Source of the DNA: a virus
DNA length: 64,000 bases
Strand: one strand, 5' to 3'
IMG/VR virus record: IMGVR_UViG_645058793_000001
Coordinates: 1-64,000 of that record
Shown here: piece by piece, positions 7,762-63,158 of the stretch
How positions within the stretch are numbered: the stretch's first letter is position 1
Layout of the letters: every line of letters starts with the position of its first letter
Made by a program: the position numbers and the translations under genes
Notes under the pieces: model-generated
Database searches by the model: none
What the model saw: the letters and a program-made list of their open reading frames with translations, nothing else
Told to the model about the DNA's origin: nothing

Positions 7762-7763
7762 AT

Positions 7764-7952: not shown

Positions 7953-7960
7953 ACCATCAC

Positions 7961-8710: not shown

Positions 8711-8819
8711 TCCTCAACCTCCCGAATTTCATACCGCTTATCATGGTATCGACTAAGTAGTTCGCTTAAATCAATACCCCAGTCGAACGGAATATTATCT
8801 TCGTAGACAACGTATTTAG

Positions 8820-10784: not shown

Positions 10785-10990
10785 TTTTTTATTTTCCTTC
10801 TATATAAGAACGCTCTGGCTGCCCAGAAAATTGATAGGACAATACTAATGAGTGAAAGGATAATGACGAATACGTTTCCTGTAAACAGTAATACTAGGTT
10901 GATAATCGACAAAACCAGTACATGAACTGAAAGCATATTGCTTAGATAGTTCATGTGATTATTTATTTTTAATCTATCCATGTGCTTCAC
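10769..10990 (-). CDS. small membrane protein (73 aa)
   Basis: Two TM helices. Confidence 0.35.
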   Translation of the reverse strand: MKHMDRLKINNHMNYLSNMLSVHVLVLSIINLVLLFTGNVFVIILSLISIVLSIFWAARAFLYRRKIKKWFNY

Positions 10991-18226: not shown

Positions 18227-18643
18227 TTATTCCTCCGTAAGTAATCGTTTATATAATCGCTTGAAAAAAGCGTTTCGTTGTCTAAAAAGTAAAGCTCGAC
18301 TAACACCAAACTTTATTGCTAACGAGACCATTGTCTCTTGTGTATGACGTTTGAAATACAATTCATTAATTAGTGTTTGCATTTCATCACTTTCACGACC
18401 AACCATGCGACGAATTGTCTTTTGATTGTGTGTCAGTGTATTTAATTTTTTATCATCAGCAACCTTGATTACTGTGCTTTCGAACGCGTGCGTGTTGTTA
18501 TTCTGCATACGTCCACCACCAATATTTTCATCGGTTTCATTCCGCTTAACCATTAACTCGAATTCGGTACGTTTGATTTCCACATCAAGCTCTGGATAGC
18601 GTCTCAACCAAGCCGCAACTGTTGCTGTTTCTTTACTCGTCAA
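18227..18643 (-). CDS. ArpU-family phage late transcriptional regulator
   Basis: Sigma-like helix pattern (ATVAAWLRRYPELDVEIKRTEFEL ... ALLFRQRNAFFKRL). Confidence 0.6.
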   Translation of the reverse strand: MTSKETATVAAWLRRYPELDVEIKRTEFELMVKRNETDENIGGGRMQNNNTHAFESTVIKVADDKKLNTLTHNQKTIRRMVGRESDEMQTLINELYFKRHTQETMVSLAIKFGVSRALLFRQRNAFFKRLYKRLLTEE

Positions 18644-25013: not shown

Positions 25014-25047
25014 TTGTCACTCCTTGTGTTATAATTTATTAAGTTAT

Positions 25048-25078
25048 CGTAAACGTATACGTGAACGTTAACGTCAAC
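25048..25078. repeat. ACGTWW hexamer array, copy D (CGTAAACGTATACGTGAACGTTAACGTCAAC) in the divergent promoter region
   Basis: Seen directly. Confidence 0.6.
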
Positions 25079-25172
25079 TTACAAGTAATAATATAAATCC
25101 AAACAGGTCAGGGAACTATCAAATATAAAGAATGCCAATAAAACAATTAATTTTATAAGAAAGGTCAATATT

Positions 25173-25517
25173 ATGAACTCGGTAAAAGACTTCGACTTAA
25201 AAGAACGAATAAAAATTTTAGCTGAGCAGCAAGGAAAATCATTAGCGGACATCACAAAAGAATCTGGATATACGTCTGGACGTATTGGTAATTGGTCACA
25301 ATTTTTTCCTGGCATGGCTCAGGTTGAACACATCGCAAGTTTGCTGGACGTATCGATATTAGATTTGTTGCCATACACGGCAGAAGATTTAGGAATTGAT
25401 ACAATACCAGAAACAACACCAAAAGGCGTGTTAATGACGACAGTAAACAAATCAAACTTAACGGACAGCCAGTACATCATATTAGTCGATTTAATTAAAT
25501 CAATGGAGGAAGGTTAA
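25173..25517 (+). CDS. XRE-family HTH regulator (114 aa)
   Basis: HTH (SLADITKESGYTSGRIGNWSQ); first gene of the par operon. Confidence 0.55.
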   Translation: MNSVKDFDLKERIKILAEQQGKSLADITKESGYTSGRIGNWSQFFPGMAQVEHIASLLDVSILDLLPYTAEDLGIDTIPETTPKGVLMTTVNKSNLTDSQYIILVDLIKSMEEG

Positions 25518-26272
25518 TGTCAGCAACCATAACAGCGTTTTATAACAACAAGGGTGGGGTAGCTAAGACGACATCAACAATTAATATTGCTGGGGAATTG
25601 TCTAAGCAACAAAAAAAGACCCTGATAATCGACGCGGATCCACAGGGGCATTCAACATTAAGTTTTGGATATGATGCAGACTCAATTGATGTTGAACTAG
25701 GTACAATGTTGTACAACAAGTTAGAAGGTTCACAAGCAAAAGAATACTTTATTCACATAAACGACTATCTCGATGTTGTACCAGCAAATCAAACGTTAGC
25801 CGATTTCATCGCCTCAAACCCAGAAGGGAACAATTACCTTAATGACTTCCTAAAAGGGCTGAGAGACGAATATGATTACATATTTATCGATATGGCACCG
25901 GCAGTCGACGTTATCCTAGCCAATGTGTTGAATGTAGTTGACGACTTAGTGGTATTATCTAGTCCACAACCATACGCAGTTCGTAATACCGAACGTACTT
26001 TAAACACAACTGACAGCTACAATGTACCAATTCGACGGATAGTTGCAACCATGGTGGATAAGCGTGTCAATACAGATAAAGAATTTCTAGAGCAGTTAAA
26101 GGAAATTGCAACAGAACATAACGTAAAGTTAGCTGATACGTATATTCCAATGCGTGCTGCATTCCGCGACAGTATGGGTAGGTATCAAATGCCGTTATCG
26201 CTAGTTGATGAACCTAGCTATAAAGAGGCACAACAGTATTATCATAAATTAACGAAAGAGTTGGGATATTAA
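25517..26272 (+). CDS. parA: ParA/Soj-family partition ATPase
   Basis: Deviant Walker A NNKGGVAKTT; ParA-like length and motifs (IIDADPQG). Confidence 0.8.
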   Translation: MSATITAFYNNKGGVAKTTSTINIAGELSKQQKKTLIIDADPQGHSTLSFGYDADSIDVELGTMLYNKLEGSQAKEYFIHINDYLDVVPANQTLADFIASNPEGNNYLNDFLKGLRDEYDYIFIDMAPAVDVILANVLNVVDDLVVLSSPQPYAVRNTERTLNTTDSYNVPIRRIVATMVDKRVNTDKEFLEQLKEIATEHNVKLADTYIPMRAAFRDSMGRYQMPLSLVDEPSYKEAQQYYHKLTKELGY

Positions 26273-26273
26273 T

Positions 26274-26522
26274 ATGGCTAAACCACAATTTCTAAGGAGA
26301 CCAACAAACGTATTAAAGCAGGATCCACAACCTGAAAAAGAAGTGGATCTAAGAACTAAAAGCAGTGAGGAAACAGCAACCGAATTATTAGCTGTTAGAG
26401 CAACACCAACAGTTAAGAAATTATTAGATGATTTAGGTAGTGAACTTGGTGTTAGGCAGGGTGGTAGAAGAAAAATTATCGAAGACGCCTTGTTTGATTA
26501 CTATGAAAAACAAAAAGATTAA
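26274..26522 (+). CDS. ParG/ParB-like small centromere-binding protein (putative RHH fold)
   Basis: 82 aa, basic N-terminal tail, C-terminal RHH-like (RRKIIEDALFDYYE); translationally coupled to parA. Confidence 0.45.
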   Translation: MAKPQFLRRPTNVLKQDPQPEKEVDLRTKSSEETATELLAVRATPTVKKLLDDLGSELGVRQGGRRKIIEDALFDYYEKQKD

Positions 26523-27834: not shown

Positions 27835-27870
27835 GTTAACGTAAATGTATACGTTAACGTTAACGTTATT
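27835..27870. repeat. ACGTWW hexamer array, copy E (GTTAACGTAAATGTATACGTTAACGTTAACGTTATT)
   Basis: Seen directly; lies between the endolysin stop and its terminator. Confidence 0.6.
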
Positions 27871-29892: not shown

Positions 29893-32800
29893 TCAATCGC
29901 TAGGTTGTTGACTATTTGATCGTTCATTTTTTAATGCCTCTATTTCTGCTGATAATTCTTGGACCGCTTTGTACAATACTGACGTGTAATCGTAAATCGA
30001 AACAAACTTCTTATCATCGGTTAATAAACGCTCATCGGTTTCATCAGCAATCACACCAATTTCCGTTTGACCATTTTTGGTGTATCGGTGAATCTTTGTG
30101 TTATTAACAATGTCCAAAGCATTATCTTCTAAATCAGTAATGTTTGTTTTGAATTTACGTTGTGACGAAACATTGAAATGTGCTGCTGCAATATCATAGT
30201 ATGTTGACAAATCACGGCTAACAATACGAACCTGACCACCAGAATAAGGTGAAAGATAAAGGTTCTTTGACCCACCATCTTCGTCGATTGCTAGAATTTG
30301 GTTAGCTTTGAAACGTATTCCCAAACCATGTCCTGAGTTAGTTGGATTAGAATAGTAATTCAACGTACCCTTCATGCTATCGTCAACATCGCTAGTGTTA
30401 GCTAGTAATTCTAGTTGCGCACGATTAGTTGAATTGTTGTACATGCTTTTGGCAGCTAACTGTAAGTGGTTATCCTGCTTGTTAATAATACGTCCGGTAT
30501 CAGTCGTGCCTAAGTGACCTGTATCACCAGTCAACACTTTGGCATTTAACTGTCCAGTAGTAATTAGACTTGCGTTGAAATTACCAGTATTAATATTTGA
30601 AGCATTGATGTTGGTGATATTGGCTTTGGCACCATTTAACGTACCTGTGGAAATTGAACCTGCATCTAAGTTAATAATATTTAAGTTCGCACCATTTAAC
30701 GTACCAACCGTTATGTTGGAGGCGTTAAGGTTTTTGAAGTTTCCACCGAGTGCATAGAAATCACCGGTAACTGAGACGTTACCATCAAGCGTAATTTGCT
30801 TACCAACAATACGAGTGTTAGATGTATCACCATTGATACCGGTTATTAACTTACCAGAGTTATCTTGAATACCAATTGCCCAATTATCTTTGAATAGTTG
30901 TAGGACAGTATCAGTAGCCATATAAGAACCTGGCATATACGGTTGAGCAGCTTTCGTAAACGTTAGCATTGGTCTTTTTAAATAAGCATTCGTTCCTTCT
31001 CTGCACTGGAATGAAACACGAATATATTTCGCATCTGTTGGTACAGAAATGTTTTCAACTTTTTTACTGTACCAAGTTCCATCATCAGTACCGTTCCAGT
31101 ACTTTAATACATTCAAGTCACTATTTACGTTTTTATGATTGGAATCTAAAAAACTAAACCATAACGACGTGTAATTTGTATTGGTAATAGTTCTAACGTC
31201 CCATGACAACGAGAATACTGTATTCCCGTTATTTCCAGGTACTGCAACATCTTGTTCGAAGTATGAATACCATTTAGTGGTATCGTTACCCGCGTCTGTT
31301 GGAACATTAATACCGACAGTTGTTTCTCCATCAACAACGTAGCTACGATAAAAATTATAATTCTTACCATTCGCTCCGTTGTTAGCAACATTCCACCCTT
31401 GCAAATCAGGGGTGAATTGCGTGTTAAATAAGCGATTTACTTGCGATACACTGGCCATAATTCCATCAGCACTCTGGCTAATTTCTGATTCCAATCCGGA
31501 CTTAGCACTTGCAATCTGACTAGTTGTATAACTTTTAGATTGCGATAATGTATTAGTATCGCCGTTCTTACGGTCTTGAATTTCAGTAGTAAACTGACCA
31601 GCCGTCTGTGTGCTAAGTGATTTAATTTGTCCACCAACATCATCGACTTTATCTTGAATCATGCCAGCTAATTGTGTTCTGGTAGACTCAACTAAGTTAT
31701 TGTTGTTATATGGCCCTGGTGTGTATGACCCAATTGTCGCACCGAGGACTAGCATCGGGTGTCCTAGATAAGCGTTTGTCCCTTCACGCGCTTCGAACGA
31801 AACATTAAGTTGAGTTGCTCCGTCCGGTACAGCAATGCCTTCCCACTTATTTTGAACATTCCAACTATTCTGACCACTGGGACTATGGCCATTCAAGTCA
31901 GCCCAATTTACATAAACAGTTGAAATTTTAACGCCATTTGAATCTTGGAACTCTAACCATAAGTTGTTATAGAACGCTGTCGTTCTAGCGTTTGCGTACC
32001 ATGACATCGAAATGTATTGTCCTGATAAAGGCGTACTAGCCAATTGCACTTGTTGTCTCAATCGTGCATAAGATGAGTCAGTACCGGCAGAAGTTTCCCA
32101 GCCCACAACAGTTGCATTTATATTTCCTTGTGTGTATGAGCGATATGGTTTCCTTATACCATTGGTTCCTTCTGTATACCACCCTTCTAAGTCTGGGTTG
32201 AACTCCGAATTAATTAATAGGTTTGATTGCCCCATAGAATTAACTTGATCAGCAACGTTTTTAATTTTTGTTTCGAACAACTGCGATGTTTGCGTATTTA
32301 ACGAGGTGTACCCTTGAGTTATATCAATAACCTTTTGATTAATCACCCCAGTCAATTGTGTGACCGTTGACTTGTCACCAGTCTTTCTGTCTTCAACTTC
32401 GTCAGTAATCTGATCAGCTAGCTGCGTGCGAATTGACTGCATTGAGGAATTATTGTTATAACTACCAGAAACATATACGTCACCAATAGTTTTTCCCAAT
32501 ACAATCATAGGCTGACTCAAATAAGCACTAACACCTTCTCTAGCTTCAAATGAAATACGTACAGTCTTAGCATTATCTGGAACGGAAATCCCTTCCCATT
32601 TTTGCAGTAACCATTTTTTTGAACCGCTTTTGTCGTCCCAATTGTTCATTGGTCTATCGTTGCCGGTGATTATATCATTGTGGTTAGAGTCATAGAAATT
32701 AATCCATATATGTTGATACATGCCATCAGTTTTTGAACGAGTCCACGAACGCCATGACATTGAAATATACTTGCCCGATTGTGGCGTTCCATACAAATTA

Positions 32801-35800
32801 ACCTCTTGTCTAAAGGTTGCAAAGTAAGCACCGTTTGATGTATCAGCGCTAGTAGTATCAATACCAACGGCAACCCCATTAAATTCATTTGTCGAAAACG
32901 AACGATAAAAATTGTGCTTATTGTCATTAGAACTCGTACCCCAACCTTCAATGTCAGGATTGAAATCTGAATTATTGAACAAATTAATTGATTGCATACT
33001 TTCCACTGTGGTCTGTATGCCGTCAGCTTTTTGAATAGCCGTTGATGCAGCAGATTGTGCATTGGTAGCAACTGTCATACCGTTAGCTGCAAGTGTAGCT
33101 GTGGCAGATAAGCCGTTATTGGGGTCTTTAACTAAGCCAGTGATACCATCGAGACTGACTTCTAATTCGGCGACACGGGCATTGTTGTTGTAGTTACCCG
33201 GAACGTAGTCACCAATAGTTGAACCTAGAACCAACATAGGTTGTGATAGATAGGCTAACGTACCTTCACGGGCTTGAAACCATACAGTTAATTTAACTGC
33301 TGTTTCAGGAACATCAATACCTTCCCACTTTTTACGTTTCGTCCATGAATTGTCTGTGTCTGTTTGGCTCCATTGTTTATAACTCTCACCAACCTTCATA
33401 CCAGACTTATCATAAAACCTTACCCACAAGCCATTATAGTTATCTACTCGACTAGCCCACGAAGCCCATGACATTGATATTTGATGTCCGGAACCAGGTG
33501 TAGATGCAAGCATAAAATCTTGTTTAAATGATACCCATGTATTTGCAGGAGCATTCTGTGTATCAAACCCAACGACATTTGCTTGAATAACACCTTGCCA
33601 GTATGAGCGATAGGGAAATTTACTTCCCGTATCAGCTTCGGTATACCACCCTTCCAAATCAGGATTAAACTCCGTATTCATCAACTGATTAACTTGACCT
33701 TGCGCATTTGCTTTCGCCTGCAACTCGGTAACGATATTAGATATGCTATCAACAGTTTGCTTGGTTTCGGAATACTTACCTTCCAAATCTTTTGTTTCTT
33801 TATCGTAATCAGTCTGACTTACCTTAGAAGTTATCTGGTTATTTAATACATTAATACTTGCGGTATTAGCGTTAACTTTCTTATCATTAGTAGATTTATA
33901 ACTAGCAACATCAGCCGTCACTGCATCAGCCGTTGTTTTAACCTGACCATATTTAGTATCTAGATCTTTAGTTTTCTTATCGTAATCTGATTGGCTGACT
34001 TTAGTTGTAATCGCTTTACTATTCGCATCAATCGCAGCAGTATTAGACGAGACCTTGCCGTCATTAGTCTTTTGGTATGCTTCTACATCAGCACGAACAC
34101 CATCAGCTTTTTGACTAACCGTGGAAATCGAATTATTTAACGTTTGATTGTTCTTGTCATAATCTGACTTAGCAACTTTTGTTTTAACTTCGTCTGCTAG
34201 TTGAGTAATTGAAGATGTATTGGTTTCAATGCCTGACTGAACATCTTCAGGAGCTGGTGTCCAATCTGTTGCAATAGTACCAATTTCTAACTTAGGTCTT
34301 GAAGCTTCGATATAATCTGCTTTAATTCCTTGAATATATATACCAACACTAACCCCTTTATTTGGGTCAATATCGACATTTGTTAGGTTTTTGAATGCTG
34401 TTATTCTACCTGAAAATGAGTCGCCAACTTTAAGATAGCTTTGGGTGATACTCGTACTTGGTGACACATATAATTTATTCCCGTCTACATCAAAGAAAAT
34501 AAGTTCCATTAATACACGATTGAAGCCATTACTAAATGATGTAATGTTTTTAATATCAACATACAATGATGTTGTTACCATCTTGTGCGAAAATTCAGAA
34601 CCATTAACTGTTGTTCCCAAATTTGATTTGTATGGATAAGGAACACCATCAGATTGTACAATTTTTAAGTCTGAGTTAGGAATGTAGTTCCTACCACCAA
34701 CCGCTAAGTTATTAATCTTGGTAACGGTGCTTTCAAACCCATCTGCTCGTTGCTTTAATTGTGATACACTCTCGTCAATTTGACCTGTTTTCTGATTATA
34801 TTCAGTTTGAGAAACCTTACTTGAAACCTCATCAGAAACAACTTTAAGTTGTGCTGTATTTGCAGAAACTTTTTTATCATTATCCAATTTATAACTAGCA
34901 ACGTCAGTTGTTACACCATCAGCTGTTTGCTTAATTTGTGCATACTTAGTATCTAAATCTTTTGTTTTTGTATCATAGTCTGACTGTGAGACTTTACTTG
35001 ATAATTCTTCTTGGGTTGCTACAATATCAGCATGATTCTTTTGAATATCATCTCCCAAGTCTTTCTTTGCATCTGCAAGGGCCTGGTTTGCTGATTGAGC
35101 AACTTGTTGAGCTTCTGAATGAGCTGTTGCTGTTGCTGTATCTACCATTGACTTAGCAGCACTACCAGCCGTTGTGTTAATACGCGTTTCCGCTTCGGAG
35201 AGTGCCACGTTTGCACTACTCAATGCACTGGAAGCTTGTGCTTTACCGTATGCAGCAGCCGAACTCGCCATACTATTTGCACGGCTTGCAGCACTGTTGG
35301 CCATACTGGTGGCAGCACTAGAAAACGCCGTTCGCTCCGAAGTTGCTAGTTGTAATTGATGTGCTGCACTACTTGCGATTGAGTCAGCTTCGGCAGCTAA
35401 ACTCTCGCGTTCACTTGCCGCACTACTCAATGCTGTGTTAGCCTCTGATTGGAACTCGGCTGCTTCACTAGCACGGACTGCGTCCATAGCAGCTGCTTGT
35501 GACTTAGCAGTTTCGATAGCTTCATCAACTTTGTTAGCAATGTATTCACCAGTTTTAGTAGAAACTAACTCAACCCACGTTGTACCGTCCCACATGAAAA
35601 TGTACTCATCGTCACCATCTTTAACGAAATACTTGTCACCAACTTTTGGGTTAGCAGGAAATGGATCATTGATTGAATTTCCGTAGTAGTCAGTATTCTT
35701 ACCATCAGCAGATGCAATAGCTGCACCTTGTGCAATATGTAAAGCTTTATCAGCAGTCTCTTTCGCACTGGCAACATTGTTAATAAACTGTTGTGTCAGC

Positions 35801-36867
35801 GTACGTTTCTTAGCACCAATTGTATAACTGTCGTACTGATCTAATAACACGTTCCATGTAATTGCGCTAACTTGTGCTAACGTATTGATACGTAATGCTT
35901 GGAAATAAACCTTAATCGTGTCACCTAAGTCGAGTGACTCCACATTCTCGCCTAAGGCTTTATTCATATCAACCGTGGATAGGTCAATTGAAACTTCTGG
36001 AATACCAACTTTATTATTGGTTATATATTGCTTGGCAAACGCACGCAACTTGTCATCAGTGTAACTCTTGATTGCGTTATCACCAGTAAACTTATCCGAG
36101 AAGTCAACCACTTGTATAACAGGCGCATTGAAGTTGTCAAAATATTTTGATTCAACAATTGTCTCAGGTAACGTCTTAACAATTGTTTTTTTGCTATCAC
36201 TATCGTCAGTGAACTGCGCGTATGGATAAATTGCATTATACGTTGAGGTGATATTTTCCTCTTGCGTTAATGTGGTAATGTTTTTCCCATACACCAACAT
36301 GTCGTGTGATTCTTTACCACGCTGATTTAGTAGTGAAACTTCAAAGTTATCGAACTTGTATTGTCCACCAACTAAATCTAGTATCGAACCTTCCTGACCA
36401 CCTAATACCGTACGTGCGTTACCGAACGTTTGCGGTGTGAATGTTCCAGTAGATTGTGTCATGACATCAGACTTAACTGTGAATAAATCGCTGCCGTATA
36501 ATAACTGAGCTTTCCACGCAGTTAACATTTGTAGGCCATTGCCAGTAGCGGTATAGGCTTTTGTTGGAATACCGTTCAATCGATAACTAATATGCTCGGC
36601 GTAAACGCTACGGTTATAAGTCGTATCACTGGTAATTTTTTTAATTTCGAATATTTGCCCCTTAAGCACATTGCCAGCATCAACCTTAACAAACGCCTGT
36701 TCCTCGATTGCGCTATCTAATGCACCGCCAACTGGATAAGTAAATTCAAAAATAAATTGTCCGTTGAGTTCCTCAGTGACAATCGCTTTCTCGGTATCAG
36801 TTAACAATCCTAGACCTAAGTTATCGAAGTCAGTCGTACCCGGTTTGTAAATAATTGGATAACTCAT
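29893..36867 (-). CDS. tail-associated lysin / receptor-binding tail fibre protein (Tal), 2324 aa, with C-terminal S74-type intramolecular chaperone
   Basis: N-terminus matches the siphovirus Tal (prophage tail endopeptidase) fold; long Ala/Ser coiled-coil; four tandem ~280-aa repeats each starting (N)xFNPDLEGW; C-terminal IGVIADET motif typical of peptidase S74 chaperone domains. Confidence 0.75.
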   Translation of the reverse strand: MSYPIIYKPGTTDFDNLGLGLLTDTEKAIVTEELNGQFIFEFTYPVGGALDSAIEEQAFVKVDAGNVLKGQIFEIKKITSDTTYNRSVYAEHISYRLNGIPTKAYTATGNGLQMLTAWKAQLLYGSDLFTVKSDVMTQSTGTFTPQTFGNARTVLGGQEGSILDLVGGQYKFDNFEVSLLNQRGKESHDMLVYGKNITTLTQEENITSTYNAIYPYAQFTDDSDSKKTIVKTLPETIVESKYFDNFNAPVIQVVDFSDKFTGDNAIKSYTDDKLRAFAKQYITNNKVGIPEVSIDLSTVDMNKALGENVESLDLGDTIKVYFQALRINTLAQVSAITWNVLLDQYDSYTIGAKKRTLTQQFINNVASAKETADKALHIAQGAAIASADGKNTDYYGNSINDPFPANPKVGDKYFVKDGDDEYIFMWDGTTWVELVSTKTGEYIANKVDEAIETAKSQAAAMDAVRASEAAEFQSEANTALSSAASERESLAAEADSIASSAAHQLQLATSERTAFSSAATSMANSAASRANSMASSAAAYGKAQASSALSSANVALSEAETRINTTAGSAAKSMVDTATATAHSEAQQVAQSANQALADAKKDLGDDIQKNHADIVATQEELSSKVSQSDYDTKTKDLDTKYAQIKQTADGVTTDVASYKLDNDKKVSANTAQLKVVSDEVSSKVSQTEYNQKTGQIDESVSQLKQRADGFESTVTKINNLAVGGRNYIPNSDLKIVQSDGVPYPYKSNLGTTVNGSEFSHKMVTTSLYVDIKNITSFSNGFNRVLMELIFFDVDGNKLYVSPSTSITQSYLKVGDSFSGRITAFKNLTNVDIDPNKGVSVGIYIQGIKADYIEASRPKLEIGTIATDWTPAPEDVQSGIETNTSSITQLADEVKTKVAKSDYDKNNQTLNNSISTVSQKADGVRADVEAYQKTNDGKVSSNTAAIDANSKAITTKVSQSDYDKKTKDLDTKYGQVKTTADAVTADVASYKSTNDKKVNANTASINVLNNQITSKVSQTDYDKETKDLEGKYSETKQTVDSISNIVTELQAKANAQGQVNQLMNTEFNPDLEGWYTEADTGSKFPYRSYWQGVIQANVVGFDTQNAPANTWVSFKQDFMLASTPGSGHQISMSWASWASRVDNYNGLWVRFYDKSGMKVGESYKQWSQTDTDNSWTKRKKWEGIDVPETAVKLTVWFQAREGTLAYLSQPMLVLGSTIGDYVPGNYNNNARVAELEVSLDGITGLVKDPNNGLSATATLAANGMTVATNAQSAASTAIQKADGIQTTVESMQSINLFNNSDFNPDIEGWGTSSNDNKHNFYRSFSTNEFNGVAVGIDTTSADTSNGAYFATFRQEVNLYGTPQSGKYISMSWRSWTRSKTDGMYQHIWINFYDSNHNDIITGNDRPMNNWDDKSGSKKWLLQKWEGISVPDNAKTVRISFEAREGVSAYLSQPMIVLGKTIGDVYVSGSYNNNSSMQSIRTQLADQITDEVEDRKTGDKSTVTQLTGVINQKVIDITQGYTSLNTQTSQLFETKIKNVADQVNSMGQSNLLINSEFNPDLEGWYTEGTNGIRKPYRSYTQGNINATVVGWETSAGTDSSYARLRQQVQLASTPLSGQYISMSWYANARTTAFYNNLWLEFQDSNGVKISTVYVNWADLNGHSPSGQNSWNVQNKWEGIAVPDGATQLNVSFEAREGTNAYLGHPMLVLGATIGSYTPGPYNNNNLVESTRTQLAGMIQDKVDDVGGQIKSLSTQTAGQFTTEIQDRKNGDTNTLSQSKSYTTSQIASAKSGLESEISQSADGIMASVSQVNRLFNTQFTPDLQGWNVANNGANGKNYNFYRSYVVDGETTVGINVPTDAGNDTTKWYSYFEQDVAVPGNNGNTVFSLSWDVRTITNTNYTSLWFSFLDSNHKNVNSDLNVLKYWNGTDDGTWYSKKVENISVPTDAKYIRVSFQCREGTNAYLKRPMLTFTKAAQPYMPGSYMATDTVLQLFKDNWAIGIQDNSGKLITGINGDTSNTRIVGKQITLDGNVSVTGDFYALGGNFKNLNASNITVGTLNGANLNIINLDAGSISTGTLNGAKANITNINASNINTGNFNASLITTGQLNAKVLTGDTGHLGTTDTGRIINKQDNHLQLAAKSMYNNSTNRAQLELLANTSDVDDSMKGTLNYYSNPTNSGHGLGIRFKANQILAIDEDGGSKNLYLSPYSGGQVRIVSRDLSTYYDIAAAHFNVSSQRKFKTNITDLEDNALDIVNNTKIHRYTKNGQTEIGVIADETDERLLTDDKKFVSIYDYTSVLYKAVQELSAEIEALKNERSNSQQPSD

Positions 36868-49424: not shown

Positions 49425-50197
49425 TACTTGATCTCCTTTAGATAAGCTTCGGCACTATCGATATAATCTTGAATTGCCTCAGCACGTTGTTTGCGTTCTT
49501 CCATGCTCATTCCCTCGGATTGTTCCTTGTCAGGTTTTTCTTGAGCATTCAAAAACTCCGGCACGTGTTCATACATGTCGGAGTATCGTTGTGATATTGA
49601 TTGCATTACAGCTGGACGTTCATTCTTTTGATCAGCCCAACCAGCAGTGATTGCTTCATCAGCAGTTAGCCATGTTTCATTATCCATGACTGACTTGATT
49701 GCTTCTTTGTCGATACCAGTTTTCTCGTGGTAAATATTCACAGAGCTTTCACGAATTTGGTCTAACGTATCGGCCATCTCGCGTAACTCACTAGCATTAC
49801 CAACTGCCATTGTGAATGGGTTGTGAATCATCAACATTGAACCAGTGTCCATCGTCAATGTATCACCAGCCATTGCAATAACCGAAGCAATTGAAGCAGC
49901 TAATCCCTCAACCGTTACATTAACCGTTGCAGGATTTTTCTTTAGCATATTGTAAATGGCAATTCCGTCGAACACGGAACCACCGGGTGAATTGATGGAC
50001 ATGTTGATTGTTTTAACTGGCCCAAGTTCTTTTAATGAATCTCGGAAATCAGTTGCTGAGACATCGCTATCCCATAACTTCTCAGAAACAATCTCACCAT
50101 CAATATGAATTTCAGCAACTTCGTTATCCGTCGCTTTCATCTGAAAGTACATCGTTGTCTTCTGTCTCCTTTCCAGTTCGTTCTTCCATCGTGGCAT
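49424..50197 (-). CDS. prohead maturation protease (ClpP/S14 family); real start probably an internal Met
   Basis: ClpP-like core (INSPGGSVFDGIAIYN ... IASVIAMAGD); the 5' end overlaps the portal gene. Confidence 0.7.
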   Translation of the reverse strand: MPRWKNELERRQKTTMYFQMKATDNEVAEIHIDGEIVSEKLWDSDVSATDFRDSLKELGPVKTINMSINSPGGSVFDGIAIYNMLKKNPATVNVTVEGLAASIASVIAMAGDTLTMDTGSMLMIHNPFTMAVGNASELREMADTLDQIRESSVNIYHEKTGIDKEAIKSVMDNETWLTADEAITAGWADQKNERPAVMQSISQRYSDMYEHVPEFLNAQEKPDKEQSEGMSMEERKQRAEAIQDYIDSAEAYLKEIK

Positions 50198-51365
50198 CAG
50201 TTGGATATAAGTCTCCTGATATCCATAACTTGTTAGCGCCAGCTTGGTTGTTGATTGGAATACCTTCTAATTCTTGAATGTATTCTGGTGAAGCAATACC
50301 ATTACGAATTAACATCTGGTAGTATGCGGTACGTGCAGCAGTATTTCCACGAAGCAACACGTTGGTATCGAACTTAAAATAAAAACCGGCTGCCTTTTGG
50401 CTGTCGGTTAATAGTTTCATATTCAATTCTGATTCATACTGTCGAACAATTGGTAAGATAGTTCCTTCAACGAACGTGATGAAATGTTCTTCGGAATCAC
50501 GATAACCAGAACCCTGATCACCAGAGTTCAAGAATATCAGTGGGACGTTGAACACGTTGGCCACACGTCTGATATAAGTATCATCATTACGTGCAACATC
50601 AGCAGTCGCAATCTTACGGTCAATCGTATCAACTTCCATGCCCGGTTCGCTGAACAGCACACCAGAGTTATCTTTGATAAATGCTTGAACGTTTAATGCA
50701 ACAGCTTTCTTACGAGTGTCATCAATGTTCTTATCAAACTTAATGGTAAATCCATCACGCTTAGACATTTCATTCAGCGAGAATTTATTGAAGGCCTCGT
50801 TATAATCTGCGGAACCTTGTAATACATCAATCGGACTAATTCCAACAACACGTGACGAACCAGTCAAATGTTTCAAGTGAATCATCTGATACGCTGGTAC
50901 ATACATCGCGCCATTTTGTCCTTGAACTTTATACCACACGGTAGAGTCGTCCGAATTAATAAATGGCATTACTAACCCATGGTCTAAATTCCAAAGTGCT
51001 TTCGGTTGTAGGTACTCATCGTATTGGATAAACACATAGGCGTTGCCAAATTCATTCCGGTCAACTTCCGCTTTGTGCCAAACATCATAAGACGAAAAAA
51101 CCGGATTAGCTTGTTGAGAAACTAACCGATCAATTGAATCTGTTCTAATGTGTTTACGATCGGCATCATACAAGTCGACATTCATAGAAGCGATGATACC
51201 AGCAAGTCGAGTAATGACAGAAAAGATTACTGGGTCTTTCTGTAACTCGACCTTACCAGTTCCGAAAAGGTTATTCGTCATGATGAGAGGAGCAGAAGAT
51301 GTACCGCTTGATTTTGGCGACGCGTTCAAACGTTCCCAAACATTATGTAGGATTCCCACAGGCAC
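50124..51365 (-). CDS. portal protein
   Basis: 413 aa; position between TerL and prohead protease. Confidence 0.8.
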   Translation of the reverse strand: MPVGILHNVWERLNASPKSSGTSSAPLIMTNNLFGTGKVELQKDPVIFSVITRLAGIIASMNVDLYDADRKHIRTDSIDRLVSQQANPVFSSYDVWHKAEVDRNEFGNAYVFIQYDEYLQPKALWNLDHGLVMPFINSDDSTVWYKVQGQNGAMYVPAYQMIHLKHLTGSSRVVGISPIDVLQGSADYNEAFNKFSLNEMSKRDGFTIKFDKNIDDTRKKAVALNVQAFIKDNSGVLFSEPGMEVDTIDRKIATADVARNDDTYIRRVANVFNVPLIFLNSGDQGSGYRDSEEHFITFVEGTILPIVRQYESELNMKLLTDSQKAAGFYFKFDTNVLLRGNTAARTAYYQMLIRNGIASPEYIQELEGIPINNQAGANKLWISGDLYPTDATMEERTGKETEDNDVLSDESDG

Positions 51366-51922
51366 ACTTCCTTTTTGATAATTTCTCTATACTACCATTA
51401 TATAGCTGTATTGAACTATGGAATCTACAATTAGTCTACAATTAGTCTACACTTATTTTAACTAGTTATTTCCACACGAAATATGCCTCCGATTTCCACA
51501 GTGTGTAGCACCTCTGAAAATTCCAAAAATGACTCATTGGCGGATATTTCGGTATCGTCTTTCTATATATAGATTATTTCTTTTTATTTTTTTCTTTTAT
51601 ACTTTTTCTAAAAAAAGAGTAAATGAATCATTCTTAAAAAATGTAAGCGCTAACAACCTTATTATATAAACGTTTGTAGCTAGTGACTCATTTTTAAGGT
51701 AGAGTCAAAATGCGTCAAAATGAATCATTCATAGTTCGGTTATCACGAACATTGGTCTCATAATTCTCTCACCATTGTGGATATTTGTTCAACAATTAGT
51801 ACAACCAATTTTATAGCTTAAACATAACTTAAATTAAACATAAAACAACCTTAAAACAATGACTCATTAGTGACGCATTTGTGACTCATTTCAAAAATGA
51901 ATCATTCAAAAAAAGACGCCCA
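51366..51922. repeat. repeat-rich non-coding region between terminase and portal
   Basis: Seven copies of the 11-bp palindrome AATGA(A/C)TCATT (51528, 51622, 51682, 51719, 51859, 51880, 51896); tandem TCTACAATTAGTCTACAATTAGTCTACAC at 51424-51452; AT-rich stretch 51560-51615; TerL terminator hairpin at 51908-51935. Confidence 0.55.
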
Positions 51923-53818
51923 TTAAGCGTCTAAATTCATCAGTTCTTCAAACGACATATACGTCAAATTTGGTTCACTATTATTTATATTTGATACCAA
52001 CATTGGAGCAATTGTCACGTGGCAATTTAATGCTGCGGCAAATCCATCTATCTTTCGATAGCGACTAGTTTTCGTCGGCATCCAATTATTGTTACGGTCA
52101 GTTACTAATGCAACGTTTGATAGATACCATTTAAATAATCTACTATTGTTAAATACTACCTTGTGGTCAAGCATTAGTTCTTTGAAATTTTGTAATGGGC
52201 CACCTAGTGTGGTAAACCCTTGTCGAGTAACCTCAGTGTGGAAACCTTGGTTCTCTAACATCGCATTCAAAGTAATTGCTTTAGCTGGGTCATAGTTAAT
52301 TTGTCTGATTGTATACTGCTTATCCATTTCGATTAACCAATCATAGACAGCACCATGGTCAACATGTTCGCCTGGCAATACGGTCATTTCATCTGCTTCT
52401 ATCCATTCATTGAAACGTTCCTTATATTGTTCCTCACGATCATAACGTGCTTGTGGAATCCAAGTATGCTGCTTAATAAATATCCGACCATCTGGTAACG
52501 GGAATTCTAATGCAGCTGCCGTAAAATCTTCCGTATCAGAAAGGTCAAATCCGGCAACTGGGTGAATACCAGCTAATTCTGATTCATCTATTTCATCGTT
52601 ATTAGCTAAAATGGTTTCCGCATCTAGCAAACTTTGTTCACCACTCTCACTGAACAGATTGAATTGCTTAGTTATCCAATCACGACGTTGCTGTGGTGTA
52701 CGCATATCTTTTTTATAATTAGATAGTAAACTAAGTCCGTCCATCATTGGTAAGTTTGGATTAGCCTTGATCCACATTTCTGGGTTGTCAGCTTCCTTAA
52801 CATCATCTATCTTAGCTAAGTAGTAAAATGAACGTTCATTTAAATTCTCGTCGTACTGTTCCAAAGTTTCTTTACCGCTTCGAAAGAAATCGGTCATTGG
52901 TCCGTCTAATACTGTACCAGCTGTACTGATATAAACAGTTAATGGTTGCATACGTTGTCCCATTGAACGACGCATAACCTCAATTAACTCATAATCTTTA
53001 TACTCGTGGATTTCATCAAACACGGCAAAGCTAGTATTGAAACCATCTTTACTATGTTTCTCAGCAGACAATGATAATATTGTGGAGTGTGTTCTTTGAT
53101 GCTCCACCTTGTGCATTGACTTAGTTGTCTTAAATCTTTTCTTTAGGAATTCCGATGCGTCAATCATCGCAATAGTTTCATCAACCAGTCGACCAGCTTG
53201 CGCTTTCATGTTGGCTAGTGCATAGACTTCGGCACCGTTTTCCCCGTCAAAACCTGCCATATATATAGCAAGTCCTGACTGGATTGTCGTTTTTCCGTTT
53301 TTACGTCCCACGAATATCAAACCTTCGTTGAATCTTCGCAGCCCTGTTTCCTTATCAACCCAGCCAAATATATTTCCTAACACGAAATGTTGCCATGGTT
53401 GTAGAACCAATCGTTTAATCGTACCTTTTGACGGCTTAGTGTTTTCCTCGATGAACCTGATTGGTCGCCATGCCTTTTCTTCATCGAACACCCATGGATA
53501 ATCTGGATCGTTCTTACTTCGTTCCAAATCATTTAGATGTCGTTGTGCTGCCATAATATTTTCTTTCGATGCTGGCACCGTGCCATCAACTAATAATTGA
53601 GCATAGTATGTGGTAAGTAGTGTAGCAGAAGGTTCTGTTAGGTAATACCAGCCGTGATAATACTCGACTAACTCTTTCCACCACTTCTTTTGACCACTGA
53701 AATCCATCTTTAATGGATTAGTCTCAGTCCCACTCACTCTTTGTATCTTCCTTCTTTTCAGAACCAAATTGCTTGTTGGCCAGCGATGCACGGCTGCTTG
53801 GTGTAAAGCCAATTTCAT
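51923..53818 (-). CDS. terL: terminase large subunit
   Basis: 631 aa; ATPase Walker A (VGRKNGKTT); C-terminal nuclease region. Confidence 0.85.
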   Translation of the reverse strand: MKLALHQAAVHRWPTSNLVLKRRKIQRVSGTETNPLKMDFSGQKKWWKELVEYYHGWYYLTEPSATLLTTYYAQLLVDGTVPASKENIMAAQRHLNDLERSKNDPDYPWVFDEEKAWRPIRFIEENTKPSKGTIKRLVLQPWQHFVLGNIFGWVDKETGLRRFNEGLIFVGRKNGKTTIQSGLAIYMAGFDGENGAEVYALANMKAQAGRLVDETIAMIDASEFLKKRFKTTKSMHKVEHQRTHSTILSLSAEKHSKDGFNTSFAVFDEIHEYKDYELIEVMRRSMGQRMQPLTVYISTAGTVLDGPMTDFFRSGKETLEQYDENLNERSFYYLAKIDDVKEADNPEMWIKANPNLPMMDGLSLLSNYKKDMRTPQQRRDWITKQFNLFSESGEQSLLDAETILANNDEIDESELAGIHPVAGFDLSDTEDFTAAALEFPLPDGRIFIKQHTWIPQARYDREEQYKERFNEWIEADEMTVLPGEHVDHGAVYDWLIEMDKQYTIRQINYDPAKAITLNAMLENQGFHTEVTRQGFTTLGGPLQNFKELMLDHKVVFNNSRLFKWYLSNVALVTDRNNNWMPTKTSRYRKIDGFAAALNCHVTIAPMLVSNINNSEPNLTYMSFEELMNLDA

Positions 53819-54209
53819 TTCCTAATTTAACTAACTGTTGTGTTGTACGACGCCACTCGTTAATAGTTGGGTTATTTCTTACCACACCTTTTTCGTCAAC
53901 ATACGTCAATCCCATTGTGTCTATTTCAGCCCACAACTCATCGACCATTACGGCCGTTCGTGCGTAACTTGCAACTAATCTAACGTCTGCGTTGTGTAGT
54001 AGGGACATTTTCTTTAACATATTCTTTGTTTCATAGAACACATCACGCTCTTTTCCCTGCATATCATCAGGCGCAACAAACTTATCTGGTTGCACAACGT
54101 TCATTGCTTCCTCACGTTTCGTACGCCCTTCAATTTCTACTTTCGATTTTCTAAGTGCGTTTCCTTCCATAGTAATAACGTTGGCTGGCTTTGCTTTTCT
54201 TCCTGGCAT
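53724..54209 (-). CDS. terS: terminase small subunit (P27 family-like)
   Basis: 161 aa immediately upstream of TerL. Confidence 0.6.
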   Translation of the reverse strand: MPGRKAKPANVITMEGNALRKSKVEIEGRTKREEAMNVVQPDKFVAPDDMQGKERDVFYETKNMLKKMSLLHNADVRLVASYARTAVMVDELWAEIDTMGLTYVDEKGVVRNNPTINEWRRTTQQLVKLGNEIGFTPSSRASLANKQFGSEKKEDTKSEWD

Positions 54210-54212: not shown

Positions 54213-54695
54213 TTACCCCACTTTCAATTGCTCGTTTGCTAAGACACTTGCTGCTGCGGCAATGATTGCACCTGCTAAATCATCAGCAAATGTGTTGATG
54301 TGTTCCTTATCTTGGTCTAATTCACCGATAATGCCACGCTTCATACGGTCTTCATATCCATAATTTGTTGTGGCAATCGTTCCATACAGACTAGCGATGC
54401 CGAATGCAAGGTGTTCGTCTACCCCAAACATTGGATCATCATTTGCAATCTTGCTGGCTAGTGACTGGTACTTGCTATCCACATGATTATTTTCGACTAG
54501 CTCATCAAGTAGCAACATTGTAAAAATGTAATCTTGGACGATTGGGTTGGCCATGACTTCGCCCACTGCCATGTACGCATCAGTTTGTACTAGCTCTGGA
54601 TTATGCGTGATTTGATTCTCATATACGATGTTAGCCAGACTTTCTGACGTGATTCCACGACTTTCCAACATCTTTTCTACCTTATATAACTCCAT
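54213..54695 (-). CDS. hypothetical protein (160 aa), first gene of the packaging operon
   Basis: ORF. Confidence 0.4.
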   Translation of the reverse strand: MELYKVEKMLESRGITSESLANIVYENQITHNPELVQTDAYMAVGEVMANPIVQDYIFTMLLLDELVENNHVDSKYQSLASKIANDDPMFGVDEHLAFGIASLYGTIATTNYGYEDRMKRGIIGELDQDKEHINTFADDLAGAIIAAAASVLANEQLKVG

Positions 54696-54754
54696 TATTG
54701 TTCTCGTTTCATATTGTTTTACTTTAATATTACTTTATAAAACAGTGTATAAAA

Positions 54755-54771
54755 TCTACAATTAGTCTACA
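54755..54771. repeat. TCTACAATTAGTCTACA element, same as the tandem copies at 51424-51452
   Basis: Exact sequence identity with the copies upstream of the portal gene. Confidence 0.55.
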
Positions 54772-55475
54772 TTTGCAATTAGCCCTATCCCTTTGTACTA
54801 CTGGTTTTTTCGTGAAGTTTATATTTATTAGGCAACATGTTGAACAATAAAATGAAGATGAAAAAATGAAGTTTTTGCACACGAAGGGCAATCCCGTTCA
54901 ATAGTTATATTTTTAATCCATATACCTTTGGTAGGGGGGTACTTATAAACATTGATATACCAAGGGTTACAGCTATTTAAAGCAGGTAGACCAATCAAAT
55001 TATTTGGTTTCAAAAAGTTATACTATTTTAAATCTGTTCGGTGTTTCTGATCGTGTTTGATCGACCGCTCGATGTATATTTATGCAAGGTTATGTATAAA
55101 TATAAATGTTAGTCACGGTTAAATAATAAGTATGTCATTGTGTATGTAGTCTATTCTGATTGTTGTAAAAAACGAATAGAACATAGTATGTATATCTAGA
55201 TGTAGTAGTATATATGTATAGATAGTTGTTAGATACGTTAGTACATGTATCTATACAACCTAGTACGCAATACTAGATACATTCTTATTTGTTTCTATGG
55301 TAGAAAAGTAGTAATAAAAAGAATTTTAAAAGTCATGTAACCGTTGTGGCCGTAAGATCCGTGACGTGTTTGTACATGTGCATTTGCAAATTAGTTGTTG
55401 ACAGTTAATACATACCGTGAGATTATAGTTATGTCGAAAGGCAACAACGACAAAAAATAAAAGTTCCAAAAATGC

Positions 55476-55505
55476 CTTGACAAGTTGAAACATACTTGAT
55501 AACAT
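55476..55505 (+). promoter_or_regulatory. sigma70-like promoter P1 (TTGACA-18-TAACAT)
   Basis: Consensus -35 plus a GTTGAAAC element; first of three copies of a ~30-bp repeat. Confidence 0.45.
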
Positions 55506-55651
55506 GGTGTTGTTGAGTTGGTCACTAAGGTTTGCGGGTACGTCCCCTTACTTCGGTAATTGTTAACAGTGATGTATCGCTTGTTACATATCAGTTAGTA
55601 CCGTTACGCGGTCGCTGGTAACACCCAATACAGTGATGTTAAAAATTAAAC

Positions 55652-55681
55652 TTGACATGTTGAAACTAACCATGTTACAAT
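55652..55681 (+). promoter_or_regulatory. sigma70-like promoter P2 (TTGACA-18-TACAAT)
   Basis: Second copy of the repeat. Confidence 0.45.
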
Positions 55682-55731
55682 GGTTTTGTTGATTGATAAC
55701 CACAACGTTAAAAAAGTTTATCAATTAAATG

Positions 55732-55760
55732 TTGACAAGTTGAAACTAACCTGATAGCAT
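55732..55760 (+). promoter_or_regulatory. sigma70-like promoter P3 (TTGACA-17-TAGCAT)
   Basis: Third copy of the repeat. Confidence 0.45.
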
Positions 55761-56016
55761 TTAAGTCGTTGGCAAAGGTTGAAACTTACCAACCCAATCA
55801 CAATAGTTTTAGTTCATTGACAATTAAATAGCGCGCTAGATTGATAGGGTCGCTGGGGTCTGCGGATACGTACGACAGTACAGGATAACCAGAATGTATG
55901 CGGTGGTAAGCCGTATATAGAAGTGATGTATAAAATGAGCGCGAATGATTGGTAATAGTACGCCAATAATACATATACGATTTGGATATATGAAACGAAA
56001 GGAAAAGGTGAAATTT

Positions 56017-56594: not shown

Positions 56595-57227
56595 GTGATT
56601 AAACCGGTAGAAAGAAAGGTATTTATTATGCACAAAACAGTAGAAACAATTGCAAAAAGCAAGACAACTAACGGACAACCAAGTTTACATAGTGTTCACA
56701 TTTCGTCTGAACAATTGGTAACAACGGACAGGCACGTACTAATTCGTGAACAATTCAAAACACCGATTGATAATCTAAATGGGGAACTGACGATTGATCC
56801 AAACGGTGTACCACTGAATGTGAACTATCCCGACACGGATAGATTGATACCAACGGACGATAACATTCGATACCACTTGAATATTGAAGCAGGCAAATGG
56901 GTAGATATTATTCAGGTGTATAAGAAAAACATGTATGCAGCAATCAATATCACGGACGGAATTGTGACGATTGCATTTGGCGAATCGTCTGACGATTTGA
57001 GTGGTGAATTTGAAATTGGTAAATCGGATAATGAAGATTTGACAATCTACTTTCAACCCAAGTTTTTGAAAATGATCGGAGACTACGGCAAGGAAGTAAT
57101 CGGGCGCAACTTTAAAGATTCGTATTTTGAATTGGAAGTTGTAAGTCGGTACGAACCAGCAAAAGTAATTTTTGAGAATGACGATATTACAGGAACATTT
57201 TTGGTAACACCATTGCACGTTAATTAA
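56595..57227 (+). CDS. hypothetical protein (210 aa; start may be the Met at 56628)
   Basis: ORF. Confidence 0.4.
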   Translation: MIKPVERKVFIMHKTVETIAKSKTTNGQPSLHSVHISSEQLVTTDRHVLIREQFKTPIDNLNGELTIDPNGVPLNVNYPDTDRLIPTDDNIRYHLNIEAGKWVDIIQVYKKNMYAAINITDGIVTIAFGESSDDLSGEFEIGKSDNEDLTIYFQPKFLKMIGDYGKEVIGRNFKDSYFELEVVSRYEPAKVIFENDDITGTFLVTPLHVN

Positions 57228-61938: not shown

Positions 61939-62785
61939 TCCTCCTACTAAAAAGGAACGCCTTTAAACGTTCCCTAATTATATGTATTGCACGACTACTA
62001 GCTAGTACCGCTGTTCCTCACCGTATCTTCGTGGCGAAACAACGCTAGTCGTACAAGTACACTGCAACTTTATCTAGAATGGGTGTTGCGAACCCACAGT
62101 TCATCTGTTCATCGTGTCTATTGTAAAGACGTAAGTAACTCAACCCTTCCGACCAGTTACCATTGGTTTTGTGCGTGTCACACAGGATATTATATGTATG
62201 CCGGCTTGAGAATATAGCCACAGCTCGAACGCCTTTAATTGCATTATGATTTCGCAACGTTTCCACGCTATCCCTAACGTATCGTTCATGTTCATATTAT
62301 TACTTCATAAGTATCTCGGCACGTTTCACTTAGGTAAGATGCAGCTAACATCTAACTTGCGCTACTAGTTACTGAACCGTTTCGTCTTGCGAACAGCCAC
62401 GGCACTCACTTCGTTATTGTAACGGTGAGTATTAGAACACATCACTCATGAAGGCAAAGCACTTTTGCTTGTAAGTATAATGTTTAATAGATTGTATTAT
62501 TTACCGGTCAATTCAACGATGTGGCCTTGCAGGAGTTCCGTTACCTTTTGAGTAACAGAATGCTCCACACCGCCTATTGTGTTTTGTTTGTAGGACGCAA
62601 CACTTGAAGTAGTGATCACTGGTTGTCAGTCAGCAATATAATTCATTCGTATCGCATGCGATTTACGGTCGCATACTGTTTAGTAGTCCTTTGGAATGAC
62701 CGTTGACATGGTGTCTCATCATTTGACATCAACCAAGCGTTCCTTAGGACTACATTACGTGCATAGATTGACCATTACTGGCACG

Positions 62786-62964: not shown

Positions 62965-63013
62965 ACCACATTTAAATAGAAATATCAGAATAGCCACAAG
63001 AAAATGTAGCTAA

Positions 63014-63086
63014 CGAGAACTACTGGATTCGAACCAGTGACATCATGATTAACGATCATACGCTCTACCAACTGAGCTAAGTTCCC
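63014..63086 (-). tRNA. tRNA, Asn-like (anticodon GTT)
   Basis: Hand-folded canonical cloverleaf: acceptor GGGAACT/AGTTCTC, D-stem GCTC/GAGC, anticodon stem TATGA/TCATG with loop TCGTTAA, variable loop ATGTC, T-arm ACTGG-TTCGAAT-CCAGT; position 33 is C rather than U. Confidence 0.65.
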
Positions 63087-63158
63087 ATAAATGGTAGCAA
63101 GCCGGGAAACTATGCTACCTATAAGGATAATGTTTTGCTAATCCAAAGGATAAGCAAT

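Follow-up and report, generated by a model that had tools for sequence, protein, structure and literature searches.

What is a gene-free segment of more than half a kilobase doing between the genes for the large terminase subunit (terL) and the portal protein of a tailed phage? We addressed this question for a 64,000-nucleotide window, positions 1 to 64,000 of the IMG/VR virus record IMGVR_UViG_645058793_000001, which is almost wholly occupied by one temperate siphovirus-type phage with most of its genes on the minus strand. The segment (51366-51922) is a real, conserved and gene-free island, and it seems to consist of two parts. Judged from the sequence, it is well supported that the portal-side ~100 bp form a second activator-dependent late promoter, which would restart transcription past the terL terminator. 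The distal remainder holds an array of dyad-symmetric sites around an extreme A/T-rich tract, and this array points to a DNA site for a lineage-specific dimeric protein. The whole reading, a second late promoter joined to an origin-type or initiator-binding nucleoprotein site, has in our estimate a probability of about 0.45. The borders of the island are formed by the following features:

51923-53818, minus strand: terL, recognised by PHROG and Pfam matches.
51914-51932, minus strand: intrinsic terminator of terL, a stem-loop AGACGCTTAATGGGCGTCT with the TAA stop codon in its loop, followed by seven T residues (51907-51913).
51359-51374, minus strand: ribosome-binding site AAAGGAAG (51367-51374) and start of the portal gene, GTG 51365 or GTG 51359.
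50124-51365, minus strand: gene of the HK97-type portal protein; a ClpP-type protease gene and then the major capsid protein gene lie downstream.

The original prediction described a gap in which terL ends with its own terminator, and this layout was recovered, with a length of 557-563 bp depending on whether GTG 51365 or, as in other assemblies, GTG 51359 is chosen as the portal start. To place the gap among related phages, about 120 loci encoding TerL relatives were surveyed. As had been supposed, contiguity of terL and portal is the rule: the two genes are adjacent in about 110 of these loci, and they are also adjacent in Lactobacillus phage JCL1032, the closest cultured phage. Where they are not adjacent, the junction holds either accessory genes, namely small open reading frames (ORFs) or the type I restriction-modification M and S genes of locus L145, or a gene-free cassette, as in L003/L004/L005, L007, L143, L144 and the lineage of the window. 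The junction is therefore an insertion hot spot. A hairpin and T-run equivalent to the terL terminator directly follow terL in L004, L007, L143 and L137. In L145 (3401-6881) the M and S genes carry a promoter and a terminator of their own. The L144 cassette belongs to a chromosomally embedded prophage in a 2-Mb Weissella confusa contig; its terL (7251-9365) is broken, so that this prophage is probably decaying. Absence of the gap from related phages had been named as an observation that would speak against the prediction. Most relatives indeed lack it, yet the closest lineages retain the layout of the cassette, so this comparison leaves the question undecided.

Four haplotypes of the locus were available for comparison: that of the window (identical to L284-L286), L137, L282 and L283. 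Between L282 and the window a recombination junction lies within the gap (51560-51960). Identity is 73-95% in terL and 90-92% in the left part of the gap, and rises to 98-100% from the A/T tract through the portal, protease and capsid genes. The island thus also marks a boundary between modules.

The portal-side part of the island is best understood together with the packaging operon and one distant regulatory gene:

51452-51524, minus strand: conserved block, richer in GC, in which two copies of GTGTGGAAAT stand 24 nt apart; about 1-2 substitutions among haplotypes.
51422-51451, minus strand: tandem 11-bp direct repeats TGTAGACTAAT TGTAGACTAAT TGTAGATT, 2.7 copies, at about -33 to -62 of the predicted portal promoter.
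51387-51405, minus strand: -10 region of the predicted portal promoter, with TATAAT (51397-51402), a second candidate TAGTAT (51389-51394) and no usable -35 box.
54753-54771, minus strand: second copy of the repeat element, TGTAGACTAATTGTAGATT, 1.7 copies, 60 nt upstream of the pgpA-terS-terL operon, with a TAATAT -10 box 20 nt downstream.
54213-54695, minus strand: pgpA-like gene (PgpA family, phosphatidylglycerophosphatase A-like), which heads the packaging operon directly before terS.
53724-54209, minus strand: terS, gene of the P27-family small terminase subunit.
18227-18643, minus strand: gene of a RinA-family late activator (NCBIfam TIGR01636 phage_rinA, 71.5 bits against a cut-off of 31.9; PHROG 36; Alt-like PHROG 2198).

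The tandem repeat that had been noticed upstream of portal was confirmed and placed at 51422-51451, ending 19 nt ahead of TATAAT; among the haplotypes only one column at its upstream edge varies, in L282/L283. Its recurrence upstream of the packaging operon was likewise confirmed, as an exact 19-mer at 54753-54771 that is found nowhere else in the window, even when three mismatches are allowed. The 17-mer TGTAGACTAATTGTAGA stands ahead of portal and ahead of pgpA-terS and nowhere else. The geometry is alike at both promoters of the window: from the repeat it is about 60 nt to the start codon and 19-20 nt to the -10 box. In L137 the repeat copy upstream of pgpA-terS is arranged in the same way. 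Moreover, in three lineages the terS and portal promoters carry one common word, which differs by lineage: besides the window's own, these are L143, with TATGCGACAAGT, and L004/L005, with TGATACTTTT/TGAGACTTTT. In L004 and L007, GTAGTATA is kept at the same distance from their own repeats. Taken together, these observations support the proposal that the shared unit CAATTAGTCTA is a late-promoter recognition element, as it is present only at the heads of the two late units and on the gene strand. The regulator itself had been named ArpU. This assignment did not hold, since the protein belongs to the RinA family and gave no match to the ArpU family; a Pfam match was not found either.

RinA, ArpU and LtrC each bind two or three short direct repeats, specific to the phage, ahead of the terS late promoter and depend on them (PMC3753634). 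The phage of the window resembles these systems of the Ltr superfamily (RinA/ArpU/LtrC/Alt; PMC3753634, PMC3152322) in that it encodes a RinA-family regulator, has short direct repeats specific to the phage, two to three in number, immediately before a late promoter whose -35 box is weak or missing, and carries such an element upstream of terS. It differs in three respects. The described phages drive the whole late operon from one terS promoter, whereas here a second putative promoter stands at portal, after a terminator, and the element copy in the gap itself precedes portal and not terS. Here the repeat unit measures 11 bp, in the described cases 7 nt. Finally, the activator gene is not adjacent to the terS element (18.2-18.6 kb versus 54.7 kb in the window).

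We propose that transcription of the pgpA-terS-terL unit would end at the terL terminator and that transcription of portal and the head and tail genes would restart at the promoter with a -10 box and no -35 box (about 51360-51451). The RinA-family activator would bind at two places, namely the 11-bp direct repeats at portal (2.7 copies of TGTAGACTAAT) and the identical 19-mer ahead of pgpA-terS, so that the two late units may fire together. Locus L145 retains the repeats and the promoter although genes have taken the place of the dyad and A/T module; the restart promoter therefore appears to accompany any insertion at the terL-portal junction. If so, the duplicated element means that RinA-type control can run two late promoters instead of one, and this would explain why a late operon can take up non-coding or accessory DNA and stay intact.

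The remaining part of the island is read in gene-strand order past the terminator as cluster A, a 125-bp spacer, cluster B, a TATAAT with a dyad, a single dyad, the A-rich tract, a further single dyad and the conserved block listed above:

51858-51906, no strand assigned: dyad cluster A, four sites, AATGATTCATT (51896-51906), AATGAGTCAC (51881-51890), AATGCGTCAC (51870-51879) and AATGAGTCATT (51858-51868).
51731-51857, no strand assigned: variable spacer, which holds TAAGGTTGTT (51844-51853), TTTAAG-N5-TTTAAG and a DnaA-box-like ATATCCACA (51776-51784).
51683-51729, no strand assigned: dyad cluster B, AATGATTCATT (51719-51729), a degenerate TTGACGCATT (51709-51718), the half-site TTGACTCTAC (51699-51708) and AATGAGTCAC (51683-51692).
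51657-51670, minus strand: putative internal -10-like box, TATAAT (51661-51666), with the dyad 51683-51692 at the -35 position and a 17-nt spacer, then TAAGGTTGTT (51652-51661).
51622-51632, no strand assigned: single dyad AATGATTCATT on the terL side of the A/T tract; its core is invariant in all haplotypes.
51559-51620, no strand assigned: A/T tract, A-rich on the gene strand, containing the 12-bp palindrome TCTATATATAGA (51562-51573).
51528-51538, no strand assigned: single dyad AATGAGTCATT on the portal side of the A/T tract; disrupted in L283 (TGAGTCA to TTAGTCA).

Seven 11-bp palindromes had been reported in the gap. Five are perfect copies of ATGANTCAT (51529, 51623, 51720, 51859 and 51897), while the two at 51682 and 51880 are GTGACTCAT and perfect on one side only. 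The only other ATGANTCAT in the window, at 5026, is a stop/start codon overlap. Beyond the earlier list we recognised two TGACGCA-type variants (51870-51879 and 51709-51718) and the half-site at 51699-51708, which gives an array of eight to nine dyad-symmetric sites with the consensus (A)ATGA-N-TCA(T/C) between about 51528 and 51906. The centre-to-centre spacing within cluster A is 16, 11 and 11 bp. TGANTCA occurs seven times in the gap, against a mean of 0.21 and a maximum of 3 in 5000 dinucleotide shuffles of the gap, and the five copies of ATGANTCAT compare with 0.02 expected from such shuffles, so the dyad motif is enriched more than 30-fold. The whole window holds 41 TGANTCA and no other regulatory-looking cluster; three of them, at 41840, 41900 and 41963 (60-63 bp apart), lie inside a 2072-aa tape-measure-like ORF and probably reflect a protein repeat. 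A scan of viral contigs for the triple-dyad pattern returned unrelated repeats only, mostly from giant-virus bins. For the cluster A pattern, viral contigs gave no match and one metagenome scan only an unrelated 11-bp tandem satellite, GAATGAGTCAC.

That the TATAAT at 51661-51666 serves as a -10-like box we can only infer; it reads TGATATAAT, an extended -10, in L137 and L282, and a consensus promoter scan did not flag it. A DnaA box in the gap was considered and dropped: there is one 8/9 match, it is lost in L282/L283, and the motif is common inside genes. The DnaA-box core TATCCACA occurs 14 times in the window (2.8 expected), mostly within genes and without shared flanks. Similarly, TGTGGAAAT is over-represented (9 versus 0.9 expected), but its other copies are mostly coding and have no shared flanks, and it was rejected as a candidate.

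The A/T tract at 51560-51615 that had been described as almost pure was confirmed as a tract; with 89% A+T the word pure does not apply. No other duplex segment of the 64 kb is as unstable, whether in 40-, 60- or 100-bp windows (z of about 4), and the equivalent tract is the least stable 60-mer in all seven related loci tested. These values describe duplex stability at the level of the sequence. A XerCD dif site within the tract was also considered, by comparison with the Firmicutes consensus by eye only; the XerD arm matches poorly and the candidate was dropped.

Variation among the four haplotypes is distributed unevenly. Variable columns number 1 of 50 in cluster A, 26 of 125 in the spacer, 7 of 49 in cluster B, 0 of 60 in the A/T tract and 2 of 93 in the repeats and promoter. 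The eight dyad cores vary in 2 of 64 columns, compared with 46 of 393 outside the cores (one-sided Fisher p = 0.022), and one of the two core changes sits at the free central N. The TGACGCA-type copy TTGACGCATT of cluster B is not conserved among the haplotypes. At the level of sequence comparison, these data show selection acting on the dyad cores, cluster A and the A/T tract. In relatives with 56-73% TerL identity the layout is retained and the repeated words differ. In each of them the terL terminator is followed by a short word in several copies, a tract that is A-rich on the gene strand, further copies of that word, tandem ~11-bp repeats, a -10 box and finally portal. The words are TGTAGAAA in L143, TATACCT in L144 (the W. 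confusa prophage), GCACCC in L004/L005 and GCACTT in L007.

This conservation bears on the view that the island encodes a non-coding RNA or a small protein, or is a decaying remnant of accessory (moron) genes that has no present function apart from the restart promoter. The insertion hot spot, at which relatives carry small ORFs or restriction-modification genes, would suit this view, as would the recombination junction within the gap. However, Rfam gave only chance-level matches, the fold of the gap as RNA is no better than that of shuffled sequence (z = -1.5), the only ORFs are of low complexity and at most 46 aa long, and a 1-nt loop makes the dyads useless as RNA hairpins. Searches of phage and plasmid collections for DNA similarity to the gap yielded no match. 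That selection acts on the dyads and the A/T tract, and that the layout persists among relatives with 56-73% TerL identity, argues for a function at the DNA level, and we consider an RNA, protein or remnant improbable.

Which DNA-level function is at stake depends in part on how the phage is maintained. Proteins identical to its portal and ParA proteins occur in Weissella paramesenteroides, including strain ATCC 33313. In assemblies of several W. paramesenteroides genomes the phage element recurs as a contig of its own, 63.3-65.1 kb long and with differing break points. Because one of these contigs (65,138 bp) is opened at another place than the window, the molecule is inferred to be circular or concatemeric in cells. 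The window encodes a ParA-type ATPase (25517-26272) and, after it, an 82-aa basic ORF, whereas no integrase turned up among the window ORFs scanned; this phage of about 64-65 kb therefore looks like a plasmid-like (episomal) prophage of W. paramesenteroides. With ParA, the lack of an integrase among the ORFs scanned and the stand-alone contigs, the replicon probably needs an origin of its own.

The array could alternatively be the partition centromere of the plasmid-like prophage, at which a centromere-binding partner of ParA would bind. Centromeres are arrays of short phased repeats, and the phage has the ATPase gene with a basic ORF behind it. Plasmid-prophage N15 has dispersed palindromic centromere sites, some of them in late regions. 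The array, however, lies 25 kb from the par genes, and arrays of the hexamer T[A/T/G]AACG (five copies each; 25043-25086 and 27835-27867) flank the par module itself and are the more natural par sites. A cassette of the same layout is present in the prophage within the 2-Mb W. confusa contig, and an extreme A/T tract is not required in a centromere. For the 82-aa ORF, assignment as a ribbon-helix-helix protein was not confirmed: it gave no family or PDB matches, and its single-sequence model (predicted local distance difference test score, pLDDT, of 68; all helices) is too poor to classify. A centromere is thus an improbable explanation of the island. The operon at 25173-26522 on the plus strand comprises genes for a helix-turn-helix protein and ParA and the 82-aa basic ORF; its flanking arrays hold about five hexamers each, with ACGT every 6 bp, and are likely a partition or operator system. 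Relatives of the ParA protein were not found in viral contigs.

Instead, we rank an origin-type site first for the distal part, giving it roughly one chance in three on the sequence features described here; an operator or silencer array comes next and the centromere after that. In the proposed mechanism, a sequence-specific dimeric phage protein would coat the dyad sites, and the resulting nucleoprotein complex would melt the A/T tract to start replication or would hold the initiator, like SPP1 oriR. With the terminator at one end and the restart promoter at the other, the array would be shielded from late transcription. Such a role agrees with the phased, specific sites to either side of the extreme and invariant A/T tract, and with the turnover of the words among relatives while the layout stays. 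Within the replication gene block there is no non-coding gap, and a dense motif array beside an A/T tract was found in none of the other non-coding regions of the window. Measured against iteron origins, the island has several phased copies of a specific site and an adjacent A/T-rich tract, the latter by sequence-level stability; a cognate initiator gene that contains or adjoins the sites was not found among the ORFs scanned.

The closest precedent is oriR of the Bacillus phage SPP1, an origin bracketed by transcription signals inside the head-gene region (PMC6316719). The island is like oriR in being a non-coding segment that breaks the conserved packaging and head gene order, in being bracketed by transcription signals at a spot that also takes accessory genes, and in setting repeated protein-binding boxes, putative here, beside an A/T-rich unwinding tract. 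It is unlike oriR in that the SPP1 boxes are shared with oriL inside the initiator gene 38, whereas here neither a second cluster nor an initiator was recognised; the SPP1 site follows portal and gp7 and does not lie between terL and portal, and the sites here are dyads, not direct repeats. The island also shares traits with lambdoid origins. These have several phased dyad-symmetric binding sites beside a strand-asymmetric A/T-rich tract, and related phages share the layout but differ in the sequence of the sites. In lambda the origin is contained in the initiator gene O of the early region, whereas the island is in the late region, is insulated by a terminator and has sites on both sides of its A/T tract.

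Several observations count against an origin-type function. The selection test involves only four haplotypes. No initiator or replisome-organiser gene was recognised among the ORFs scanned and the binding protein was not identified, nor does the window hold a second dyad cluster, for example one placed inside a replication gene in the manner of SPP1 oriL or lambda O. A distance of more than 26 kb separates the island from the replication genes. Phage JCL1032 has the same primase-helicase type without the gap, and the cassette is therefore not tied to that replication module; among relatives of the primase, none was found on contigs bearing the gap cassette. Most TerL relatives lack the cassette, and in L145 restriction-modification genes stand in its place. 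The chromosomally embedded prophage L144 has a cassette as well. A region near the presumed cos site (55070-55330), with TGTATA-type repeats and A/T-rich DNA, could be the true origin, and the lone DnaA-box-like sequence of the island is not conserved.

The operator or silencer reading holds that the 400 bp before the portal promoter, together with the internal TATAAT, are covered by a phage repressor or another regulator. The head and tail genes would thus be held off in the plasmid-prophage state, or timed, and the array would have no role in replication. Dyads of this type are bound by dimeric regulators and are phased here at 11 bp, one of them occupies the -35 position of the internal TATAAT, the array is directly upstream of a late promoter, and its words are lineage-specific, as in operators. 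The distance of most of the array from the portal promoter, 110-480 bp upstream, is however too great for simple repression. Operators are usually also found at the regulator's own promoter, but no dyad copy stands near any regulator gene or at the pgpA-terS late promoter, and the candidate repressor genes have different repeats of their own nearby. This reading also leaves the invariant, extreme and site-bracketed A/T tract unexplained. We regard it as rather unlikely, although it is the strongest competitor of the origin-type reading.

Returning to the origin-type site, a bolder version would see in the distal part a new portable gene-free cassette, made of a terminator, lineage-specific words and an extreme A/T tract, that colonises the terL-portal junction of HK97-like Lactobacillales phages as an origin or copy-control site of plasmid-like prophages with an unrecognised initiator. 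We hold this to be doubtful. Every dyad site of the Weissella lineage contains GANTC, so it is conceivable that DNA methylation could gate the activity of the array; Dam sites gate oriC. GANTC is slightly depleted genome-wide (147 observed, 205 expected). If the island does act as an origin-type site, it would be a second example, after SPP1 oriR, embedded in a packaging and head gene block, and it would provide a defined 400-bp target, both in the search for the initiator and in the design of vectors and 'phage-encoded resistance' constructs. Mapping of replication origins and of late-gene control is still poor in the phages of Weissella, Leuconostoc and lactobacilli, which are important in food fermentations, and plasmid-like prophages of Gram-positive bacteria have barely been studied.

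A role of the gap as a pac or cos site, or in association with one, had been proposed as well. Such a site for terminase recognition or cleavage would draw on a likeness to lambda cosB, with binding-site arrays flanking a bendable A/T tract, here with its palindrome TCTATATATAGA. The ends of linear-DNA contigs from two samples lie elsewhere, 3 kb away. Logan contig SRR27732218_7148 (63,741 bp) starts at window position 54887, and a contig from the sister sample SRR27732225 ends at 54897, which leaves exactly 9 nt between them, CGGGATTGC (54888-54896). Within the window's own lineage no contig ends were found inside the gap. The contigs of L138/L139 end behind terL; these ends were rejected as genome ends, as the contigs run into an insertion-sequence-like ORF.

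54881-54900, with a C-run at 54934-54941, no strand assigned: probable cos motif, with a conserved TACCCCCC about 40 nt from CGGGATTGC.

The 9-mer lies in TGAA|CGGGnnnnC|CCTTCG, a motif that L143 and L144 conserve ahead of pgpA-terS and L004 retains in part. It resembles the annotated cos of JCL1032, CGGGCGCCAG, which likewise lies upstream of terS in a phage whose terL and portal are adjacent. We therefore place the probable cos of the phage at 54888-54896, upstream of pgpA-terS. The phage shares its terminase family with JCL1032 and the other HK97-like phages with a P27-type TerS, and the repeats and A/T-rich DNA of the island superficially resemble the terminase-binding regions of such phages. 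The cos, however, is upstream of pgpA-terS as in JCL1032, with the island 3 kb away, and it is very improbable that the terminase recognises or cleaves the gap.

Further features of the phage were noted during the analysis. The PgpA-family gene at the head of the packaging operon is kept in L137, L143, L144 and L282. Facing from cos towards the plus-strand early genes are four near-consensus promoters (TTGACA-17/18-TAnnAT; 55398-55807, plus strand), each with the repeat GTTGAAACTAACC, and the TGTATA-rich region at 55070-55330 lies just before them. In the P27-TerS-type terminase family an HNH endonuclease gene usually adjoins cos, but here the HNH gene is distant from terS. An ImmR-type repressor-like and ImmA-type metalloprotease-like pair, an Ant-type anti-repressor with a C-terminal helix-turn-helix and this HNH endonuclease were assigned to a group of genes at 12405-13138 (plus strand), 10974-11975 (minus strand) and 15140-15568 (minus strand). 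An early 210-aa protein (56595-57227, plus strand) resembles a single DnaN sliding-clamp domain (PDB 2awa_A, E = 1.8e-5; PHROG 'DNA polymerase / processivity factor'). Besides the tape-measure-like ORF, the window holds a second giant ORF of 2324 aa at 29893-36867. Finally, a GOLLD RNA (Rfam RF02032, 173 bits against a gathering score of 150; 62203-62575, minus strand) is encoded within the phage beside a tRNA-Asn gene (63013-63087, minus strand).

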